This document shows, piece by piece, positions 8,198 to 17,426 of a DNA stretch of 24,000 nucleotides; positions within the stretch are counted from its first letter, which is position 1, and each line of letters opens with the position of its first letter. Under the pieces are notes generated by a model. That model had not been told where the DNA came from. It worked only from the letters and a program-made list of their open reading frames with translations, and did no database searches. Origin of the DNA: an uncultured Actinobacillus sp. (GTDB taxonomy: Bacteria; Pseudomonadota; Gammaproteobacteria; Enterobacterales; Pasteurellaceae); contig CAUTMS010000001.1 in NCBI GenBank assembly GCA_963539805.1, forward strand, positions 118,993 through 142,992, in the 5' to 3' direction. The position numbers and the translations under genes are program-made.

Positions 8198-8299
8198 TAA
8201 ATCTGATATATGTAGCAACACGCCGACGAGATATTTTCCGCTTCGTCGGCGCAAACACAATATAATCCGATTAAAAGCGCTTATCATGGAGTGCAGCCT

Positions 8300-9262
8300 A
8301 TGAAAAAATTATTCAAACTCTCTCTTGTTACTGGTATGGCTTTAGCGTCGCTAAATGTTCATGCCGAAGAAAAATTCATCACTATCGGGACCGGTGGTCA
8401 AACCGGCGTGTATTATGTGGTGGGTCAGTCTATTTGTCAGTTAGTGAATCGTGATACGGCGAAAACCGGCGTGAAATGTAATGCGCCTTCAACCGGCGCT
8501 TCCGTGGCGAATCTGAACGCCATTGCCGATCATCAAATGGACATGGGAATTGCCCAATCCGACTGGCAATATCACGCCTATAACGGTTCAAGTTCTTTTG
8601 AAGGTAAGAAAAACGAAAAATTACGTGCCGTTTTCTCGCTTCATCCGGAACCGTTTACATTAATGGTGCGTGATGATTCCGGTATTAAATCTTTTGACGA
8701 TCTGAAAGGCAAACGTGTGAATGTGGGCGATCCGGGCTCGGGCACCCGCGCCACCATGAATGTTATTCTGGCGGCTAAAGGCTGGACGGATAAGGATTTC
8801 AAAGTGGCTTCCGAATTAAAACCGGCGGAAATGGCCTCTGTAATGTGTGATAACAATCTGGACGCGATTACCTATAATGTGGGCCATCCGAACGGGGCGC
8901 TGAAAGAAGCGGCGGCTTCCTGCGATTCTCATTTGGTGCCGGTAACGGGCGAAGCCATCGATAAATTGGTGGCGGATCATTCTTACTATGCGAAAGCCGT
9001 GATTCCGGGCGAATTATACAAAGGCACTGACAATCCGGTGGAAACTTTCGGGGTGTATGCGACGTTGGTGACCTCCGAAGATGTGGATGCGGATAAAGTT
9101 TACGCGGTAGTGAAAGCGGTGTTCGATAATTTTGACCGTTTTAAACGCTTGCATCCGGCGTTTGCCAACCTGAAACAGGAAGAGATGATCACCAACGCCT
9201 TATCCGCACCTTTGCATGAAGGCGCCGTCCGTTATTACAAGGAACGTGGTTGGATTAAATAA
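8300..9262 (+). CDS. TAXI-family TRAP transporter solute receptor (periplasmic binding protein)
   Basis: Signal peptide MKKLFKLSLVTGMALASLNVHA followed by ITIGTGGQTGVYYVVG, typical of TAXI receptors. The start is set at the ATG at 8300, with GGAG at 8288-8291. Confidence 0.85.
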   Translation: MKKLFKLSLVTGMALASLNVHAEEKFITIGTGGQTGVYYVVGQSICQLVNRDTAKTGVKCNAPSTGASVANLNAIADHQMDMGIAQSDWQYHAYNGSSSFEGKKNEKLRAVFSLHPEPFTLMVRDDSGIKSFDDLKGKRVNVGDPGSGTRATMNVILAAKGWTDKDFKVASELKPAEMASVMCDNNLDAITYNVGHPNGALKEAAASCDSHLVPVTGEAIDKLVADHSYYAKAVIPGELYKGTDNPVETFGVYATLVTSEDVDADKVYAVVKAVFDNFDRFKRLHPAFANLKQEEMITNALSAPLHEGAVRYYKERGWIK

Positions 9263-9279
9263 AATCTCTCGTTTTTTTA

Positions 9280-9346
9280 ACCGCACTTTTTCTTGATTTC
9301 GGCGCGCTGTGCGTAGCTATCAACGTAAAAGTGCGGTCGTTTTTTT
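9280..9346 (+). terminator. Inverted USS pair plus T-run between the receptor and permease genes; candidate intercistronic attenuator/terminator
   Basis: ACCGCACTTTT (9280-9290) pairs with AAAAGTGCGGT (9327-9337) across a 36-nt loop, followed by a T7 run at 9340-9346. Confidence 0.5.
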
Positions 9347-9409
9347 GTTATTTTTTCTCCTTGTCGCTCGAATCGGCTACGGGGAGTGTTACTTGGAAGG
9401 AACCCGTCT

Positions 9410-12052
9410 ATGTCAGCAGATATGTCAGCCAAAAAATCGATTGATTATGATGATTTACAGGACATGGTGGCGTCAAATGATGCCGGGGGGCGCACGCCTC
9501 GCGGTTTTGCCAAAAAACTCATTGTTGTCACCGCTATTTTGTGGTCCGTTTTTCAACTTTATTACACTTCGCCGCTGCCTTATTGGTTGCAGGAAGTGCT
9601 AACCCATCACGGATGGGATATTAATGTGGTGGTGGACGACACCAAAGCGCGCTCTATTCATCTGGCGTTTGCTTTGTTTCTTGCTTATCTGTCGTTTCCG
9701 GCCTTCGCCACTTCGCCGAAGCAGCATATTCCGACGCTTGACTGGATTCTGGCGGTGAGCGGCGCATTTTTAGGGGCGTATTACCTGTTTTTCTACGAAG
9801 GACTAGTGAAACGTTTCGGTGCGCCTAATCTGCAGGATATTATTGCGGGCTGTTGCGGCGTGTTGTTATTGCTGGAGGCGACCCGTCGCAGTTTAGGTTT
9901 GCCGTTGGTGGTCATTGCCGTCGTGTTTTTGTTGTATAACTTTTTCGGCCAATATTTGCCGACGGATTGGATCATCAGTCATCGTTCCGGTTCACTGTCT
10001 CAAATTGTCAACCAGCAATGGATTACTACGGAAGGCGTGTTCGGCGTGGCATTAGGGGTTTCGACCAAATACGTGTTCCTGTTCGTGCTGTTCGGCGCAT
10101 TGCTGGATAAAGCGGGAGCGGGCAACTATTTTATCAAAACCGCTTTTGCTTATCTCGGACATTTAAGCGGCGGCCCGGCGAAAGCGGCGGTCGTATCTTC
10201 CGCTTTAACCGGCTTGGTTTCGGGCTCTTCCATTGCTAATGTGGTGACGACCGGAACCTTCACAATCCCAATGATGAAGCGCGTGGGCTTTACGCCGGAA
10301 AAAGCGGGTGCCGTTGAGGTCGCGTCTTCGGTAAACGGTCAGCTTATGCCGCCGGTCATGGGGGCCGCCGCCTTCCTGATGATCGAATACGTCAATATGC
10401 CTTACAGCGAATTGATTGTTCACGCCTTTTTGCCGGCGCTTATTTCGTATATCGCCTTGGTTTATATCGTCCATATTGAAGCCTGCAAAATGGGGCTGAA
10501 AGGCTTGCCGAGAACCGATCCGCCAAAACCTCTGCTGATGGTGCTGATTCGCGTGCTGGCGTCGTTTCTGGTGATTTGCGTAACCTATTTTATTCTCGAA
10601 TTTTGCCTCGGCTGGATTAAACGTGCGGCGCCCGATTTTTCGTTCCTGATTGTCAGTGTATTATTGTTCGCGGCGTATTTATTGCTGATTCGCCGTGTAG
10701 CCCGTTTTCCGGATTTAGAACCGGATGACCCGAATGCCAAAATCGCCGTCTTGCCGTCCGTGAAGCCGACGGTGAATGCCGGATTGCATTATTTGCTGCC
10801 GGTGGTAGTGCTGATGTGGTGTCTGATGATTGAACGTATGTCGCCGGGATTATCGGCGTTCTGGGGGACTTTGGCATTGGGCATGATTTTGTTGACACAG
10901 CGTCCGTTGCTCAGCCTGTTCCGAAAAAGTCACGAAAATCTGACCGCACTTTTCCGTCAGGGATTGCAAGAATTGGTTGACGGTTTGGAAACCGGCGCGC
11001 GGAATATGATCGGGATCGGTATTGCTACCGCCACCGCCGGTATTATCGTCGGTTCGGTGTCGTTGACGGGCTTCGGCGTACAGTTGGCGAGCATCATCGA
11101 ATATCTGTCCATGGGTAATATTTTGCTGATGTTGATTTTGGTGGCGATATTCAGTTTGATTCTCGGTATGGGATTACCGACCACGGCGAACTATATCGTA
11201 GTGTCTTCGCTGATGGCGTTGGTGATTGTTGAAGTGGGTAAACAAAACGGCCTTATCGTGCCGCTTATCGCCGTGCATATGTTCGTTTTCTATTTCGGGA
11301 TTATGGCGGATGTCACCCCGCCGGTGGGCCTGGCGTCCTTTGCCGCTGCGGCGATTTCGGGCGGCAGTCCGATTAAAACCGGGGTGGAAGCCTTTTATTA
11401 CAGCCTGCGTACCGCTATTTTGCCGTTCCTGTTCATCTTCAATACGGATTTATTGCTGATTGATGTGGGTTGGGCGAAAGGCATATTGGTTTTCGTTGTG
11501 GCGGTGATCGGGATTATGGCCTTTACCGCCGCCAGCATGGGATATTTCTTCCGTTTCAATAAACGTTGGGAAACCGTGTTGCTGCTATTTGCCGCGTTTA
11601 TGCTGTTTCGTCCGGGATTTTTCATGCAGCATATTTCGCCGACGGAGCGGTATATCGAACCGGCGAAACTGGTGCAGGAAATCGGACAAACGCCGGTGGG
11701 ACGAAACCTCACCCTTAAAGTGGCGGGTGTGAATCCTTACGGCAAGCCTATCGAATTTTATTCTCAACTTAGCGTACCGGAAGGAAAAACGGGCGAAGAA
11801 CGTTTGGAAAATCTCGGCCTGACCTTGCTGGATACCGGGGAAAAAATTGAAATCAACGGTGTTGAAACGCCAAAAATCCTGATTGATAATGTTACCCTCG
11901 ATTCGCCTGCGGCCAAAGCCGGCCTGAATTGGGATCAAACCATTATCGAAGTGGCGGTGCCGCAAAATTCTTTAGCGAAAGAATGGATGTTTATCCCCGC
12001 CTTGTTATTGATTGCGGGCATTGTCTGGAATCAGCGCCGCCGTCCGGAATAG
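9410..12052 (+). CDS. TRAP transporter fused permease (TAXI-associated 4TM/12TM fusion) with a C-terminal extra-membrane extension
   Basis: About 880 aa and highly hydrophobic. Motifs include GSSIANVVTTGTFTIPMMKR and GIMADVTPPVGLASFAAA. The start is set at the ATG at 9410, with GGAAGGA upstream. The last ~150 aa are soluble-like and end in one further TM helix. Confidence 0.85.
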   Translation: MSADMSAKKSIDYDDLQDMVASNDAGGRTPRGFAKKLIVVTAILWSVFQLYYTSPLPYWLQEVLTHHGWDINVVVDDTKARSIHLAFALFLAYLSFPAFATSPKQHIPTLDWILAVSGAFLGAYYLFFYEGLVKRFGAPNLQDIIAGCCGVLLLLEATRRSLGLPLVVIAVVFLLYNFFGQYLPTDWIISHRSGSLSQIVNQQWITTEGVFGVALGVSTKYVFLFVLFGALLDKAGAGNYFIKTAFAYLGHLSGGPAKAAVVSSALTGLVSGSSIANVVTTGTFTIPMMKRVGFTPEKAGAVEVASSVNGQLMPPVMGAAAFLMIEYVNMPYSELIVHAFLPALISYIALVYIVHIEACKMGLKGLPRTDPPKPLLMVLIRVLASFLVICVTYFILEFCLGWIKRAAPDFSFLIVSVLLFAAYLLLIRRVARFPDLEPDDPNAKIAVLPSVKPTVNAGLHYLLPVVVLMWCLMIERMSPGLSAFWGTLALGMILLTQRPLLSLFRKSHENLTALFRQGLQELVDGLETGARNMIGIGIATATAGIIVGSVSLTGFGVQLASIIEYLSMGNILLMLILVAIFSLILGMGLPTTANYIVVSSLMALVIVEVGKQNGLIVPLIAVHMFVFYFGIMADVTPPVGLASFAAAAISGGSPIKTGVEAFYYSLRTAILPFLFIFNTDLLLIDVGWAKGILVFVVAVIGIMAFTAASMGYFFRFNKRWETVLLLFAAFMLFRPGFFMQHISPTERYIEPAKLVQEIGQTPVGRNLTLKVAGVNPYGKPIEFYSQLSVPEGKTGEERLENLGLTLLDTGEKIEINGVETPKILIDNVTLDSPAAKAGLNWDQTIIEVAVPQNSLAKEWMFIPALLLIAGIVWNQRRRPE
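10943..10951 (-). repeat. Uptake signal sequence core (inside permease gene)
   Basis: Exact ACCGCACTT. Confidence 0.9.
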
Positions 12053-12585: not shown

Positions 12586-12857
12586 ATGAAAAACTTTGCG
12601 AAATTTACCCTGTGGACGGGGGTGTTGTTAACGGCGTCGGTGCAGGCGAAAGGCTGGACGTACGATGATTTCCGCGCATGGTAACGGAATTGCCGAGTGA
12701 ACTTGCCGGTATGAACTGCCGCAATTATCCGGATGTAATCACTTACCGTGGCGATAATCCGAACGATATGTTCAAAGAAGGCGAGAACGAATACGAGATT
12801 GAGACCCATTTGGTGTCAGTCACCGGCGCAGAAACTGATAAGCTGATATGGAGATGA
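12586..12857 (+). pseudogene. Small secreted protein gene apparently split by a 1-nt frameshift (hand-translated ORFs 12586-12684 and 12678-12857)
   Basis: ORF1 reads MKNFAKFTLWTGVLLTASVQAKGWTYDDFRAW-stop, a signal peptide with VQA-K cleavage. ORF2 in the next frame reads MVTELPSELAGMNCRNYPDVITYRGDNPNDMFKEGENEYEIETHLVSVTGAETDKLIWR-stop and has no RBS of its own. Both fall below the ORF-track cutoff. Function unknown. Confidence 0.4.
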
Positions 12858-12858
12858 A

Positions 12859-13479
12859 ATGATGATCAAAAAAGTCGTAGAAGAATATCTAAATCAAATT
12901 CAGGTAGAAAAATATTCAATCATTATTATCAATCCTCTTGATGAGATATCTATTATTTCCAATCAGCCACAAGCCTGGGAACAGGATTTCATTAAAATGA
13001 AACTGCATTTGAGAAGTAATATAGTTTTAAAAGCGAAAGAAAAAATAACGCCGTTCTGGTGGTCGGCGGAAAGTGCGGATAATGAAGTATGTAGAAAATT
13101 AGTGGAAAAATATAAAATTCGCTGCGGAATTACCTTTGTCATGAAGATAAAATGTGAGCATGTTATTTTTACCTTATATTTTAATGAAAACGACCCAAAT
13201 TTTTTTAATTTATATCAAAAAGAAAAACACAGAATTTTGTTTGAGATCCTTAGTCTGTTTGAGGAAAATTATAAACGAGAGCCAATAGTTAGTCTCACTG
13301 GTAGAGAGAAAGAGGTGTTAGACCTGCTAAAAATAGGGAAGACATATTCGGAAATAGGAATGATTTTAGGGGTGACGGAAAGGACGGTCAGATTCCATAT
13401 CACCAATGTATTGGCTAAACTGGATGTTACTTCTGTGAAATATGCTATTGTGAAAGCTATGGTTGAAGGTATTATCTGA
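12859..13479 (+). CDS. LuxR-family transcriptional regulator: quorum-sensing-type N-terminal ligand-binding-like domain plus C-terminal GerE/LuxR HTH
   Basis: The C-terminus LTGREKEVLDLLKIGKTYSEIGMILGVTERTVRFHITNVLAKL is a LuxR-type HTH. It carries the invariant E150/L154/G160 spacing (TraR E178/L182/G188). The N-terminus keeps the spacing W40-x3-F44-x8-S53-N54-x13-W68, which equals TraR W57-Y61-D70-P71-W85. Confidence 0.8.
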   Translation: MMIKKVVEEYLNQIQVEKYSIIIINPLDEISIISNQPQAWEQDFIKMKLHLRSNIVLKAKEKITPFWWSAESADNEVCRKLVEKYKIRCGITFVMKIKCEHVIFTLYFNENDPNFFNLYQKEKHRILFEILSLFEENYKREPIVSLTGREKEVLDLLKIGKTYSEIGMILGVTERTVRFHITNVLAKLDVTSVKYAIVKAMVEGII

Positions 13480-13491
13480 TAGTCTCAATAT

Positions 13492-13533
13492 AATAAGAGG
13501 TAAACCCTTTTACTACGGGAATTGCCTCTTATT
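13492..13533. terminator. Candidate bidirectional hairpin between the convergent luxR-family gene and the operon end
   Basis: AATAAGAGG (13492-13500) pairs with CCTCTTATT (13525-13533). The loop is long at 24 nt, so this is only a moderate candidate. Confidence 0.4.
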
Positions 13534-13537
13534 ATGA

Positions 13538-13984
13538 TTACTTTTTAAAATTTATGATTATTGCCCCGATAATAACAAAAATTACACCGGTAACGCGAGC
13601 AACGGATATTGAATGTACCGGTACGTTAAGTAAACCGAATTTATCAATTACTAATGCTGCGATAACCTGCCCTGCTACCACTAAAACCAGAAAATTAGCA
13701 GCGCCGATAAGCGGTATGGCGAATGTCCCAATTACAAGAAATGCAACACCCATAGCCCCACCTAACCATGCCCACCACGGAGCGCTTAAGATTGTGTCGT
13801 TTGGTAACGGAGCCTTGAAGATAAGAATAAGAAACACCATGAGAACGATACTTACCAGAGCGGAAACCAGAGATGCCGTTACCGGGTTTCCCAGAATTTT
13901 CGATAATTCCGCGTTAGCGCCTCCCTGTATAGGTAATGCAACCCCTGCCAGAAAGGCACAGATTAAACTAATAACGTATTGCAT
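13538..13984 (-). CDS. Small DMT-superfamily inner-membrane transporter (YdcZ/DUF606-like); putative exporter
   Basis: 148 aa and entirely hydrophobic, with 4-5 predicted helices. The N-terminus LAGVALPIQGGANAELSKILGNPVTASLVS resembles the YdcZ family. The start is set at the ATG at 13984, with AAGGA upstream, 11 nt after the HAD stop. Confidence 0.55.
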   Translation of the reverse strand: MQYVISLICAFLAGVALPIQGGANAELSKILGNPVTASLVSALVSIVLMVFLILIFKAPLPNDTILSAPWWAWLGGAMGVAFLVIGTFAIPLIGAANFLVLVVAGQVIAALVIDKFGLLNVPVHSISVARVTGVIFVIIGAIIINFKK

Positions 13985-13995
13985 ATTTCTAATCC

Positions 13996-14688
13996 TTACC
14001 ATAAGCTGGAATTTAATAAACATCTATCAACCCGAAGGATAATATCTTTTGTAATATCAGTGAATTTATTTACCATGCATTTAACACCAGTATTTATCAT
14101 TTCTTCCCGCTGAAAATTATGCGGCATTGATGCAGGAACACCAATAAAACCGGTATTTAATGCTTTACACACTTCAGCTACTCGGTTTATATCATCAATG
14201 AACACAACTTCATCAAAGTTTAATTTGAATTCTTCTTTTACGATTTCAAATACACCGGGGCGGAAAGCATTGATATCAATATAAGGCTTATCTTTGTCAA
14301 AATATTTCGCATAGGGTGCTAAAAAACGATCAAAACTATACTCTTTATTTCGCCCACCATAACAGGTTAGTTTTGCTCCCGTGCTATTTAATAACGCTAA
14401 TGTTGATTCAATACCAGCGCGAACCTGTACTGGATGATCTTTAATATACTGTTCTCGTATTTTAAAGAAATCTTTAATGACTTTTTCACCGGAGTAAGGA
14501 AGTTTACAGGCAAGTGCCAGATTATGACCGGCTGTGATTTGAGGTGAACCCCATACGCTACGTTCAATTAACGGCGTATATTCTACACCCAGAGATTCAA
14601 CAAATATTTTTATTGCCGGACTGTATGTGTCATTTAGCACAACTCCGTCACTATCAATAGCAAAAAGTTTAATTTTTTTCAATTTCAT
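13996..14688 (-). CDS. HAD-superfamily hydrolase (putative phosphatase)
   Basis: Motif I FAIDSDGVV has the DxD nucleophile pair at D12/D14, and motif IV is VVFIDDIN. 230 aa. AAGGA RBS, 11 nt after the ketosynthase stop. Confidence 0.7.
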   Translation of the reverse strand: MKLKKIKLFAIDSDGVVLNDTYSPAIKIFVESLGVEYTPLIERSVWGSPQITAGHNLALACKLPYSGEKVIKDFFKIREQYIKDHPVQVRAGIESTLALLNSTGAKLTCYGGRNKEYSFDRFLAPYAKYFDKDKPYIDINAFRPGVFEIVKEEFKLNFDEVVFIDDINRVAEVCKALNTGFIGVPASMPHNFQREEMINTGVKCMVNKFTDITKDIILRVDRCLLNSSLW

Positions 14689-14699
14689 AGAATTATCCT

Positions 14700-15917
14700 T
14701 TATTCATATTTAGAAAAGATTAAGGCGGCATTTTGGCCACCAAATCCAACAGAAGTACTGAGTACATTTTTCACATGAATATCACTGATCGTATTAGTGG
14801 CAATTTTAACTTTTATTTCTTTATCAATGTTTCTTAAACCTGCAACTGGTGGAATTTTATTATTTACGATTTTTAATATCGAGAACACGGCCTCTATTGC
14901 ACCTGAGGCTGCCAAACTATGTCCTGTAACCCCCTTTGTTGACGTCACATAAGCACTTTTACCAAAAAAATCATATAGAACTTTTCCCTCAATACGATCA
15001 TTAAGTAGTGTTGATGTGCCATGTGCATTGATACACTGAATATCGGTAGATTCCAGTACGGCATCGTTTAAGGCTGCACAGATGGATACTGAAAGCCCAG
15101 AACCATTAGGTGATGGTGATGTAATATGATATGAATCATTAGCTGAACCATATCCAGCTACTGAAGCATAAATTTTCGCTTTACGATCTAAAGCCGATGT
15201 TTCTTTCTCTAGGACAAGCATTGCTGCACCCTCTGAAATAACAAAGCCATCTCTTTCATTATCAAAGGGCCGTGATGAATAGGCTAGATTAGTATTTTTA
15301 GAAAGGGCTCCGATCTTTGTAAAGGAGGATACAACCAGCGGCGTTATAGGTGCTTCACTTCCGCCAGCAAGAACAATATCACATATCCCATTTTCTATGA
15401 GATATTTGCCCATCCCAATAGAATCAGTTCCAGATGCACATGCCGTTCCGATAAGATAAGTTGGTCCTTTTATACCGAGTTCAATAGCAATATTTCCAGT
15501 TGCCATACTTCCCATTGTAGAAAGTAAATATAACGAACCTATAGTGCCAACTCCTTCGTTATATGCTCTTTTGTTTAATTTCTCAACAGAAGTGACACCT
15601 GCCAGTGAATTACCTAAAATGACCCCGACTTTAACGGTTTTATTATCAATATCTAACTTTGCGTCTTCAATGGCTTTTTTTGCTGCATAGAGAGCATATT
15701 GAATAAACGGATCAATTCTCCATATCAGTGATTTATTCAAGCAATCTGAGGGAGTAAAATTTTTGATAGGGCAGGACCATGATACGTCAAGAGTATTCAA
15801 ACGATTATCAATGATCGTCATACTTTTTCCTTTAATCAGATTTTCCCAACACTCGTCAGGAGTAAGGCCGGCAGAAGAAATAATTCCCATACCGGTAACA
15901 ACAACTTTATGTTTCAT
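14700..15917 (-). CDS. Beta-ketoacyl-ACP synthase, FabF/FabB-like (KAS I/II type)
   Basis: The N-terminus is KVVVTGMGIISSAG. The catalytic triad context is intact: GTACASG (Cys), NAHGTST (His) and TGHSLAASG (His). The start is set at the ATG at 15917, with AAAGGTG upstream. Confidence 0.85.
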   Translation of the reverse strand: MKHKVVVTGMGIISSAGLTPDECWENLIKGKSMTIIDNRLNTLDVSWSCPIKNFTPSDCLNKSLIWRIDPFIQYALYAAKKAIEDAKLDIDNKTVKVGVILGNSLAGVTSVEKLNKRAYNEGVGTIGSLYLLSTMGSMATGNIAIELGIKGPTYLIGTACASGTDSIGMGKYLIENGICDIVLAGGSEAPITPLVVSSFTKIGALSKNTNLAYSSRPFDNERDGFVISEGAAMLVLEKETSALDRKAKIYASVAGYGSANDSYHITSPSPNGSGLSVSICAALNDAVLESTDIQCINAHGTSTLLNDRIEGKVLYDFFGKSAYVTSTKGVTGHSLAASGAIEAVFSILKIVNNKIPPVAGLRNIDKEIKVKIATNTISDIHVKNVLSTSVGFGGQNAALIFSKYE

Positions 15918-15935
15918 GTTATGCACCTTTCAATC

Positions 15936-16157
15936 CTATTTTTTCAGCTCTTTTACTCTCTTACTTATTGTTTGTAATGTGTCATTGTTAACTAAAGACA
16001 AACTACCTTCGGATAAACCAAATTCTCGTTCAATTTCTATTTGAAATTCAACTATGCATATTGAATCTAGTCCTATGCTTTCGAGTGGTTCGTCATTTTT
16101 AATATTATTTTCTGACACACCAAAAGTTTCAGTTAATATTGTTTCTAATTTTTCCAT
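15936..16157 (-). CDS. Acyl carrier protein (dedicated, discrete)
   Basis: 73 aa and acidic. It has the phosphopantetheine attachment motif GLDSI (Ser32). Its start overlaps the upstream gene's stop by 13 nt. Confidence 0.8.
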   Translation of the reverse strand: MEKLETILTETFGVSENNIKNDEPLESIGLDSICIVEFQIEIEREFGLSEGSLSLVNNDTLQTISKRVKELKK

Positions 16158-17053
16158 ATATTCCTCTCGATCTTTAATTTTAAACTTGCCATAATAGATT
16201 CATTTTGAAGTACATTGACATTAAAAAAATATATGTCTTTATATAAAGATACCTTTTGAATTTTAACAATTGCAGGTATATTGATTTCGACGTAATTAAA
16301 AAAATCTCCATCAATTTCAGTAGGTATGAAGTATCCTATATTTTCATGCATCTTCGATAAATAGTAATAGCATAATTGTTTCGCAGCCTCAGTTAAGTTC
16401 ATCCCCGTTATATGATCCTGTTCATGATCATTAAATGATTTATTATTTTTATTAATGTTAATAATAGTACTGATATAAGGGGGAGTATCATGTAAACGTG
16501 TCAAAATCACATTCCTTGTTGAGTTATAGCATACGCTCTCAGGTTGTAAATTCTCTTTTAATTCTATTTGTTGAGGACTGGTTTGAATATTTTTGCGGAT
16601 TAATTTATAGCTGGCAGAACTCACATATGTAACATTTATTTTTATTTCACTTATTACTCTGTCATTTTTACTGAAAATAATGTTAAATACATTTTTTGTC
16701 ATTTTTTGGTTAATAGAATTTTTAGTAAAAATATCTACTTTAATATTATTGGAATTTCTCAATGGGGTTATATTATAATTAATAGACCAATTTCTAAGTA
16801 GAAATTTTGAATCTAAACATATACCAAATTCTTTATGAGACAAATATGTTTCAATCTGCCGAGCGCACTCTAATAAATAAAGAGGATTTATAAACCCTAT
16901 TGAAGCGTTAAAATCGGAATAAAATGGGTGATCATTTATTACACGACAATCGGATTGAAATCTTTTATTTGAAACTCGTAAAATATTTTCGATAAACACT
17001 TCACTATCATTTAATTTATGAGTGTATAATTTCAAATCTTTTAAATTTTCCAC
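16145..17053 (-). CDS. AfsA-like protein (two A-factor-biosynthesis hotdog repeats); predicted beta-ketoacyl-ACP:DHAP acyltransferase / butenolide synthase
   Basis: 302 aa, the same size as AfsA/ScbA/MmfL. Repeat 1 has DHPFY (41-45) and NPLYLLECARQ (56-66). Repeat 2 has NDHEQDHITGMNLTEAAKQ (208-226). These match the AfsA repeat signatures DHPFF...DPLL..EA.RQ and NDHVPGMLLLEAARQ as I recall them. GTG start at 17053 with AAGGAGG 5 nt upstream. Confidence 0.7.
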   Translation of the reverse strand: MENLKDLKLYTHKLNDSEVFIENILRVSNKRFQSDCRVINDHPFYSDFNASIGFINPLYLLECARQIETYLSHKEFGICLDSKFLLRNWSINYNITPLRNSNNIKVDIFTKNSINQKMTKNVFNIIFSKNDRVISEIKINVTYVSSASYKLIRKNIQTSPQQIELKENLQPESVCYNSTRNVILTRLHDTPPYISTIININKNNKSFNDHEQDHITGMNLTEAAKQLCYYYLSKMHENIGYFIPTEIDGDFFNYVEINIPAIVKIQKVSLYKDIYFFNVNVLQNESIMASLKLKIERNIWKN

Positions 17054-17099
17054 AGTTCCTCCTTTTAGTTTTATTAAATACCTATTAATGAGTAATGAA

Positions 17100-17119
17100 A
17101 ACTGTCAGTTTTGACAGGT
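17100..17119 (-). promoter_or_regulatory. lux-box-like dyad upstream of the AfsA-like operon
   Basis: The minus strand reads ACCTGTCAAAACTGACAGTT. It contains a perfect inverted repeat, CTGTCA (17102-17107) and TGACAG (17112-17117), and fits the CTG-N10-CAG architecture. It is identical at 13/20 positions to the V. fischeri lux box ACCTGTAGGATCGTACAGGT as I recall it. A 5/6 match to the -10 hexamer, TTTAAT (17078-17073), places the dyad centre near -43. Confidence 0.5.
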
Positions 17120-17186
17120 TAGACAGTAAAGAGTATTTATAAACCTTAGCATGAGAATGTTTGTGCATTTTGATGATTACATGTAA

Positions 17187-17426
17187 GGAACGGATAATCC
17201 GGTGGAAACTTTCGGGGTTTACGCCACGTTGGTGACCTCGGAAGAGGTGCCGGCGGATAAAGTGTATGCCGTGGTAAAGGCGGTTTTTGACAATTTCGAT
17301 CGTTTCAAACGCACTCACCCGGCGTTCGCTCATCTTAGCAAGGAAGAGATGATTCATAATGCTTTGTCGGCGCCGTTACATGAGGGCGCGGCACGTTATT
17401 ATCGCGAACAGGGTTGGCTAAAATAA
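17187..17426 (+). pseudogene. 3' remnant (last 79 codons) of a second TAXI-family TRAP solute-receptor gene
   Basis: [21 protein letters not shown]...YYREQGWLK-stop is collinear with residues encoded at 9023-9262 of the intact receptor gene. 63 of 74 residues are identical over the track ORF. An in-frame TAA sits at 17184-17186 and no 5' part is present. Confidence 0.85.

Follow-up and report, generated by a model that had tools for sequence, protein, structure and literature searches.

We describe a small LuxR-type regulator (positions 12859–13479, plus strand) and the operon beside it in a stretch of 24,000 nucleotides from an uncultured Actinobacillus sp. of the Pasteurellaceae (GenBank assembly GCA_963539805.1, contig CAUTMS010000001.1, positions 118,993 to 142,992), hereafter the window. 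The regulator gene occupies the left end of a low-GC island and is convergent with a five-gene minus-strand operon whose first gene encodes a homologue of the AfsA family of butenolide and gamma-butyrolactone synthases. Our analysis indicates that the protein is probably a LuxR-family receptor whose pocket has been retuned to a lactone without an amide, a butenolide or butyrolactone-like product of AfsA, and that it would activate the operon by which this ligand would be synthesised. The pairing has the appearance of an undescribed lactone signalling circuit that genomic islands carry from one Gram-negative bacterium to another.

Pfam searches of the regulator return a GerE/LuxR helix-turn-helix (HTH) domain at residues 145–199 (54.7 bits) and an Autoind_bind domain (PF03472) at residues 10–101 (28.2 bits, against a gathering cut-off of 23), the latter spanning profile positions 12–113 of 149. 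The ligand-binding domain is short (~135 aa), and the protein as a whole is ~30 aa shorter than canonical LuxR/LuxI-type receptors of acyl-homoserine lactones (AHLs). Its gene has a GGAG Shine-Dalgarno sequence 5 nt before the ATG, and the PGAP label for the product is only 'helix-turn-helix transcriptional regulator'. An AlphaFold2 model built on the family alignment (predicted local distance difference test score, pLDDT, 87.2; predicted template modelling score, pTM, 0.72) shows the alpha/beta/alpha ligand-binding fold complete with its five strands, and after it a DNA-binding domain of four helices; the top Foldseek matches of this model in the PDB are QscR, LasR, TraR, RhlR, SdiA and CviR, with E-values from 4e-14 to 1e-8. 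A preliminary description of the window, made from its letters and reading frames, had called a LuxR-type receptor at this position, which the domain matches and the model bear out.

In the ligand-binding domain, the regulator carries W40-F44-S53-N54-W68-G90 where AHL receptors have W-Y-D-P-W-G. It keeps three of the six signature residues of this domain (W57, Y61, D70, P71, W85 and G113 in TraR), falling short of the six-residue AHL signature. The residue mapping, together with the spacing W-x3-F-x8-S-N-x13-W, had been proposed from a hand alignment and was reproduced by direct count, by phmmer and by a profile of 34 family sequences. Using phmmer, the regulator residues align ungapped with W62/Y66/D75/P76/W90 of QscR, with W60/D73/W88 of LasR and with the equivalent W, Y, D, P and W of YenR; the family profile gives the same mapping for QscR (E 7e-20) and LasR, and CviR, when aligned to it, has the Asp of its 'hDPI' motif under the family Ser. 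G90 aligns with the conserved Gly that is G113 in TraR. A further loss is that of the Tyr in contact with the amide carbonyl (TraR Y53, LasR Y56), which is Q36 in the regulator and L, M or I in its relatives. The register of strand beta-5 shifts by 1–2 residues between alignments, placing either T105 or Y107 opposite LasR S129. In AHL receptors, W57 of TraR and the equivalent Trp of LasR hydrogen-bond the lactone carbonyl of the ligand, and D70 and Y53 of TraR are its amide contacts. The HTH signature residues E150, L154 and G160, also named in the preliminary description, are all present by direct count; across the subfamily the E and G are invariant, and the L position is occupied by L, M, I or A. 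The regulator is thus a member of the LuxR quorum-sensing fold family that departs from the AHL-receptor signature.

The altered signature, position 54 aside, is conserved among relatives of the regulator. W40, F44, S53, P65, W68 and G90 are invariant in 34 of 34 aligned homologues of 40–93% identity, with N, E, D or H at position 54, and S20 and Y107 are likewise invariant across subfamily sequences of the same identity range. The family profile was run against 1.84 billion representative proteins, and the matches were realigned to it. Every subfamily member (36 close homologues and four further 50%-identity representatives) contains W-F-S-x-W along with S20 and Y107, whereas 79 of the 95 next-best full-length LuxR-type neighbours carry the canonical WYDPW, which is also kept by distant homologues from Martelella, Pectobacterium and Aquamicrobium (24–35% identity, 232–245 aa). 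The subfamily is small and discrete, its members being ~204–217 aa long, 40–93% identical to the window protein and found in Exercitatus varius (Bisgaard taxon 10, Pasteurellaceae; 93%), Klebsiella, Citrobacter braakii, Salmonella enterica subsp. diarizonae, Serratia fonticola and metagenomes. Because WFSxW is invariant in this subfamily while the nearest outgroup proteins mostly have WYDPW, the pocket substitutions are, as judged from sequence, a derived change held by selection in one clade and not drift in a decaying solo. The switch from WYDPW to WFSxW between sister clades amounts to a natural experiment on how LuxR pockets change specificity.

The operon that converges on the regulator encodes, in order, the AfsA homologue, an acyl carrier protein (ACP), a FabF-like beta-ketoacyl-ACP synthase (KAS), a HAD-superfamily hydrolase and a YdcZ-type inner-membrane transporter. 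The afsA gene has an AGGAGG sequence 4 nt ahead of its GTG start, and its product matches PF03756 in two stretches (E 1.4e-28). Counterparts of the ACP in syntenic loci carry a PP-binding annotation. The Pfam matches of the HAD protein are weak and under the cut-off, the PDB holds no sequence related to it, and NCBIfam models match neither this protein nor YdcZ. The preliminary description had reported no LuxI-type synthase in the window, and indeed no LuxI-type domain (PF00765) was found in any of its large open reading frames (ORFs), nor in the called genes of syntenic loci. No TetR/ArpA-type receptor (TetR_N) is encoded in the window or in the afsA-carrying syntenic islands, where the LuxR-type protein is the only regulator, and the operon contains no gene for a BprA-type reductase.

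Upstream of afsA lies a lux-box-like 20-bp dyad, ACCTGTCAAAACTGACAGTT (CTG-N10-CAG), whose promoter-proximal end is 46 nt from the GTG. It stands where the preliminary description had placed it, and is the only match in the window, with 0.08 expected. The dyad resembles the lux box of V. fischeri, ACCTGTAGGATCGTACAGGT. Every afsA-carrying locus examined has nCCTGTCA-N4-yGACAGTT upstream of afsA, within intergenic DNA that is otherwise unconserved, and in seven loci a -10-like hexamer with 4–5 of 6 matches to TATAAT follows at 20–21 nt, the spacing agreeing to ±1 nt, which would put the centre of the dyad at about -43 of the afsA promoter. Canonical LuxR, TraR and LasR, as class II activators, bind near the same position, the placement here being predicted from sequence. 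We consider it very likely that the regulator controls the afsA operon through this dyad. Additionally, in Klebsiella sp. I138 and Escherichia coli A38 a second copy precedes the gene for a Gram-negative porin that the island encodes, and the count observed in these islands was reached in none of 200 shuffles; this suggests that the regulon may include an outer-membrane channel. The island in the window has no porin gene. Near the type IV secretion genes of copies borne on elements resembling integrative and conjugative elements (ICEs), where control of transfer as by TraR might be expected, no further dyads were present within 8 kb.

A search of genome contigs with the single regulator sequence matched nothing, and the family alignment was used successfully in its place; most of the 80 loci it returned matched in the HTH only (Nitrospira and others) and were left out. 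The regulator and the set afsA-ACP-KAS-HAD-transporter are syntenic in at least nine loci from several genera. Two Exercitatus varius assemblies have the same layout as the window, and the module also occurs in Salmonella enterica diarizonae, Serratia fonticola, Klebsiella sp. I138, a Serratia metagenome-assembled genome, K. aerogenes and Citrobacter braakii, as well as in two of 5,426 complete E. coli genomes, including that of E. coli A38. No homologue of the regulator was found among PLSDB plasmids at E <= 1e-20. Pairwise identities across eight loci show that the regulator correlates with AfsA (r 0.93), KAS (0.98) and HAD (0.94), and the ranges of identity (regulator 40–93%, AfsA 30–89%, KAS 54–96%, HAD 65–96%) show that the regulator and AfsA diverge fastest. 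Such co-divergence is the pattern expected of a receptor/synthase pair inherited as one unit.

Enterobacterial versions of the module have a major facilitator superfamily (MFS) transporter in place of YdcZ and an added split transketolase, whose separate N- and C-terminal subunits are encoded between the MFS transporter and the regulator; the Pasteurellaceae operon is without it. This enzyme may alter the sugar-phosphate acceptor or modify the product, and the signal may then differ between lineages. In several enterobacterial versions the module adjoins type IV secretion and/or integrase genes, forming ICE-like islands. In Salmonella diarizonae, K. aerogenes and C. braakii it ends an ICE-like element (VirB4, TrbL, TrbC, SLT, AlpA), and a tyrosine integrase is found in the flank of the Salmonella diarizonae and K. 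aerogenes modules, whereas the E. coli A38 module has an integrase only.

Six loci have the regulator but lack afsA. Four of them, from Vibrio salinus and three metagenomic contigs, also lack ACP, KAS and HAD but keep a WFSxW regulator and a dyad directly upstream of an MFS or YdcZ transporter gene, and five (L002, L088, L089, L091 and L092) keep the regulator next to such a transporter; in the DNA at hand, no dyad was seen in L092 or in the Kushneria locus L006. These receptor and transporter remnants, which are repeated and independent, could be eavesdropper or efflux cassettes.

The A-factor pathway, as reportedly set out by Kato et al. in 2007, serves as the template for the biosynthetic steps that we propose. 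The FabF-like KAS and the dedicated ACP would build a beta-ketoacyl-ACP, the donor for AfsA, which would move the acyl group to a C3 sugar phosphate such as dihydroxyacetone phosphate; the ester would cyclise to a butenolide phosphate, from which the HAD enzyme would strip the phosphate. As no BprA-type reductase is encoded, the default product would be a 2-acyl-3-hydroxymethyl-butenolide, with a butyrolactone formed instead should a housekeeping reductase act. The YdcZ transporter, or the MFS transporter in enterobacteria, would export this product across the inner membrane. In the receptor, W40 would be kept for the lactone carbonyl and W68 for packing, with S53 and Q36 in place of the amide contacts D70 and Y53. 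A lactone without an amide would fit such a pocket, since the lactone-contacting Trp is retained and both amide contacts are lost. The ligand-bound receptor would then dimerise on the dyad near -43 and activate the afsA operon, closing a positive autoinduction loop like that of LuxR/LuxI. A lactone or butenolide ligand without an amide had been suggested in the preliminary description from the pocket residues; this idea gains independent support because the AfsA operon, which that description did not cite, converges on the regulator, and synteny, co-divergence and the shared operator support it further, the ligand itself being putative.

On a broader scale, we see about an even chance that these loci represent a self-contained, horizontally mobile quorum-sensing module of Gammaproteobacteria, composed of an AfsA-made autoinducer, a WFSxWG LuxR receptor, a lux box and a synthase operon (with a porin gene in enterobacteria), which spreads in ICE-like fashion among Pasteurellaceae, Salmonella, Klebsiella, Citrobacter, Serratia and rare E. 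coli, and from which receptor and transporter derivatives persist as eavesdroppers.

Several observations weigh against a retuned receptor for an AfsA product. The AfsA homologue matches the NF041195 (ScbA/BarX) model over its full length (E 1.2e-33), but its 116.6 bits lie below the equivalog cut-off of 200, and it is just 26% identical to the nearest Streptomyces protein; on these grounds it is placed as a family member and not as an established equivalog, and its chemistry could differ. The roles of the pocket residues are assigned by analogy with TraR, LasR and QscR, and substitutions of D70 and Y61 occur in many LuxR solos that have no assigned ligand (PMC4338825). Since altered signature residues alone are common among such solos (PMC4338825), the genomic context carries most of the weight. 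The placement of the dyad near -43 depends on a predicted start site and is predicted along with it. The split transketolase added in enterobacterial versions has no assigned role, and the survival of regulator and transporter units that have no afsA could indicate that cells treat the molecule as a toxin and not as a signal. Some LuxR-family proteins, for example CarR, MalR and CepR2, also act without a ligand (PMC10134790).

These last proteins are the precedent for regarding the regulator as a cluster-situated activator that is ligand-independent or otherwise cued, that binds the dyad and turns on the afsA operon according to its own expression level, and whose altered pocket reflects lost ligand binding (PMC10134790). 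The short ligand-binding domain, with its partial Pfam match, fits such a protein, but the fold is complete and confidently predicted, the invariance of W40, F44, S53, W68, G90, S20 and Y107 at 40–93% identity indicates purifying selection on the pocket rather than decay, and no pair in the module co-diverges faster than the regulator and AfsA; we regard this alternative as unlikely. The product could instead be mainly a bioactive or toxic butenolide, which the receptor senses to induce export and self-protection, with the loci that have regulator, dyad and transporter but not afsA acting as acquired resistance or eavesdropping cassettes. The retention of the regulator beside a transporter in five of those six loci, four with the dyad directly before the transporter, is consistent with this, as is the filling of the same slot by non-homologous transporters in different lineages, and photopyrone (PPY) and dialkylresorcinol (DAR) signals are known to be bifunctional (PMC10134790). 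Yet the dyad fronts the synthase gene, giving the feed-forward loop typical of autoinducers, and the biosynthetic set is minimal, matching signal-type AfsA pathways, so that we judge a mainly toxic product to be quite unlikely; its key claim, that the receptor senses the operon product, is shared with the autoinducer reading that we prefer.

A solo like SdiA, still responsive to exogenous AHLs or to some other external cue, with the neighbouring operon regulated incidentally, would account for the fold and DNA-binding domain being closest to those of AHL receptors (QscR and the top Foldseek matches) and for the canonical lux-box form of the operator. It is nonetheless improbable, given that D70 is replaced by an invariant Ser, Y53 by Q, L or M and Y61 by F, and that the nearest canonical relatives have WYDPW, making the change derived and coincident with the link to afsA. 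More improbable again is that the dyad is an RNA hairpin, a terminator or a chance palindrome unrelated to the regulator. A consensus scan does list it as terminator-like, with a 6-bp stem containing three G-C pairs and a T-rich tail, but we rejected a terminator on position and on conservation pattern: no gene ends upstream of the dyad on either strand, and the half-sites are conserved as sequence, without compensatory changes, across genera with diverged flanks, for which reasons a protein-binding site is the better reading. The dyad also accompanies the regulator gene in loci without afsA, and the Klebsiella and E. coli islands each have two copies of it.

The closest functional parallels are in Photorhabdus, where PluR with PpyS (photopyrones) and PauR with DarABC (dialkylresorcinols) are class C LuxR solos with endogenous non-AHL ligands (Bez et al. 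2023, PMC10134790). The regulator shares with them the features of this class, a PF03472 LuxR-type protein with an altered WYDPWG motif, no LuxI and nearby biosynthetic genes of non-LuxI type, including a synthase whose product is the presumed ligand. The PluR and PauR motifs are TYDQCS and TYDQYI (PMC10134790), and the WFSNWG motif of the regulator is their opposite, with the lactone-contacting Trp kept and the Asp lost; the pathway here is of AfsA type and not a ketosynthase. Both Photorhabdus systems lack autoinduction, their synthase genes not being under receptor control (2023 review, PMC10134790), in contrast to the synthase operon here, which carries a conserved lux box from which autoinduction is predicted, in response to a putative ligand. 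The most fitting place for the regulator is a new subgroup of class C-like, non-AHL LuxR receptors that are coupled to an AfsA pathway.

With TraR, LasR, QscR, SdiA and CviR, the regulator has in common the two-domain fold and the residues W57, W85, G113, E178, L182 and G188, and with canonical LuxR/LuxI systems the 20-bp CTG-N10-CAG operator, here predicted near -43 of the synthase promoter, and the linkage of receptor and synthase genes. It differs from canonical AHL receptors by Y61F, D70S, P71N and the loss of Y53, by the absence of luxI and by the AfsA type of the linked synthase. AHL receptors are reported, in the title of a 2021 paper by Liu et al. cited in PMC13220807, to respond to Streptomyces butyrolactones. 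The AfsA homologue has two hotdog halves, as in the actinomycete A-factor and gamma-butyrolactone systems (AfsA/ScbA, ArpA/ScbR), and a predicted HAD phosphatase partner, as MmfP is in the MmfL/MmfP/MmfR furan system; the receptor here is LuxR-type and not TetR-type, there is no BprA-type reductase, and the hosts are Gammaproteobacteria. KAS, ACP and hydrolase neighbours are also seen near actinobacterial AfsA homologues, and phylogenetic work has recorded gammaproteobacterial AfsA homologues (Citrobacter koseri, Dickeya) with no receptor (PMC8209734). In the styrolide and acaterin clusters of Pseudomonas, the AfsA-like proteins StoB and AcaA form a butenolide by condensing a 3-oxo thioester and a C3 sugar phosphate (Klapper et al. 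2020, PMC7154651); unlike the window operon, those clusters have short-chain reductases and no reported linked LuxR-type receptor, and a signalling role has only been suggested for them (PMC7154651). In Rhodococcus erythropolis, a LuxR-family activator encoded upstream of scbA activates the promoter of the AfsA-type synthase (PMC13454427), but this system is actinobacterial and also has a TetR-type ScbR receptor, and the description of the activator goes no further than LuxR-family. Among the many motif variants listed in surveys of LuxR solos, D70S included, none is tied to AfsA (PMC4338825; PMC10134790). The literature searched contained no account of AfsA paired with a LuxR-type (PF03472) protein in Proteobacteria, nor any experimental record of the regulator responding to an endogenous non-AHL molecule, an earlier description elsewhere being possible.

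Altered pockets are very common among LuxR solos, but very few such solos have been matched to a ligand. In this case a candidate ligand pathway (AfsA), an operator and a regulon can all be read from the genome, making the question of receptor and ligand directly testable. If our reading is true, the regulator would be the first receptor of LuxR type for a signal derived from AfsA, and its circuit the first non-AHL one in the LuxR family for which autoinduction is predicted. The system would join the LuxR receptors of Gram-negative bacteria with the AfsA synthases of actinomycetes, two classic worlds of lactone signalling. It would also bring a new signal class to enterobacterial and Pasteurellaceae quorum sensing, demonstrate the transfer of such a circuit by integrative elements into Salmonella, Klebsiella and E. 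coli, and provide an orthogonal set of receptor, promoter and synthase for synthetic biology.

Table 1 Positions of the features discussed, in the window and in other loci (L numbers).
Feature	Sequence	Position	Strand	Description
LuxR-type receptor/regulator	Window	12859..13479	+	206 aa; autoinducer-binding fold ~1-137, GerE HTH 145-199
Low-GC island with whole module	Window	12859..17200 (approximate)	.	27-38% GC vs 44-52% in flanks; between usp and rluA
YdcZ-type drug/metabolite transporter (DMT) family inner-membrane transporter	Window	13538..14023	-	Last operon gene, convergent with regulator
HAD-superfamily hydrolase	Window	13996..14688	-	230 aa; DxD nucleophile motif D12-S-D14 read from sequence
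FabF-like beta-ketoacyl-ACP synthase (KAS)	Window	14700..15926	-	408 aa; Cys-His-His motifs ACASG, AHGTST, GHSLAASG
Dedicated acyl carrier protein	Window	15936..16157	-	73 aa; LGLDS phosphopantetheine-attachment motif
AfsA-family butenolide/gamma-butyrolactone synthase homologue	Window	16145..17053	-	302 aa, two hotdog halves; first operon gene
-10-like hexamer TTTAAT	Window	17073..17078	-	Starts 21 nt past dyad
Lux-box-like 20-bp dyad	Window	17100..17119	-	Predicted operator of LuxR-type protein
Secreted-protein gene remnant	Window	12587..12857	+	Includes ORF 12678-12857
Inverted repeat	Window	13490..13535		11-nt arms, 24-nt spacer
Duplicate ORF	Window	17202..17426	+	74 codons
TAXI/NMT1_3 TRAP solute receptor	Window	8291..9262		
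Second dyad	Klebsiella sp. I138 (L001)	16136-16155		
Porin gene	Klebsiella sp. I138 (L001)	14776-16050		
Second dyad	E. coli A38 (L093)	14147-14162		
Porin gene	E. coli A38 (L093)	12785-13864		
Integrase	E. coli A38 (L093)	14321-15592		
Split transketolase	L083-L087, L090, L093	~8640-10300 each		Between MFS transporter and regulator
ICE-like element ended by module	L083/L084, L087, L090	1-7700		Salmonella diarizonae, K. aerogenes, C. braakii
Regulator, dyad and transporter without afsA	L002	8650		
Regulator, dyad and transporter without afsA	L088	9995		
Regulator, dyad and transporter without afsA	L089	9147		
Regulator, dyad and transporter without afsA	L091	4182		

Directly upstream of the regulator lies the remnant of a gene for a small secreted protein, which has a signal peptide (MKNFAKFTLWTGVLLTASVQA) followed by a frameshift into an ORF that stops 1 nt ahead of the luxR-type ATG, and which has no Pfam match. 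It is a decaying pseudogene, since its Exercitatus varius counterpart carries a premature stop and a 78-nt deletion. We also considered the regulator as a truncated pseudogene whose N-terminus lies in this upstream ORF, and rejected this because the 34 homologues are ~204–217 aa long with the same start and the upstream region is a separately decaying pseudogene.

Between the convergent stops of the regulator and ydcZ there is an inverted repeat (ATAATAAGAGG ... CCTCTTATTAT), which may be a bidirectional terminator or another site. At the other end of the module, exactly at the right border of the low-GC island, a short plus-strand ORF is an 84% identical copy of the C-terminal 74 residues of a TAXI/NMT1_3 TRAP solute receptor encoded elsewhere in the window, and is probably left over from the recombination or insertion event by which the island arrived.

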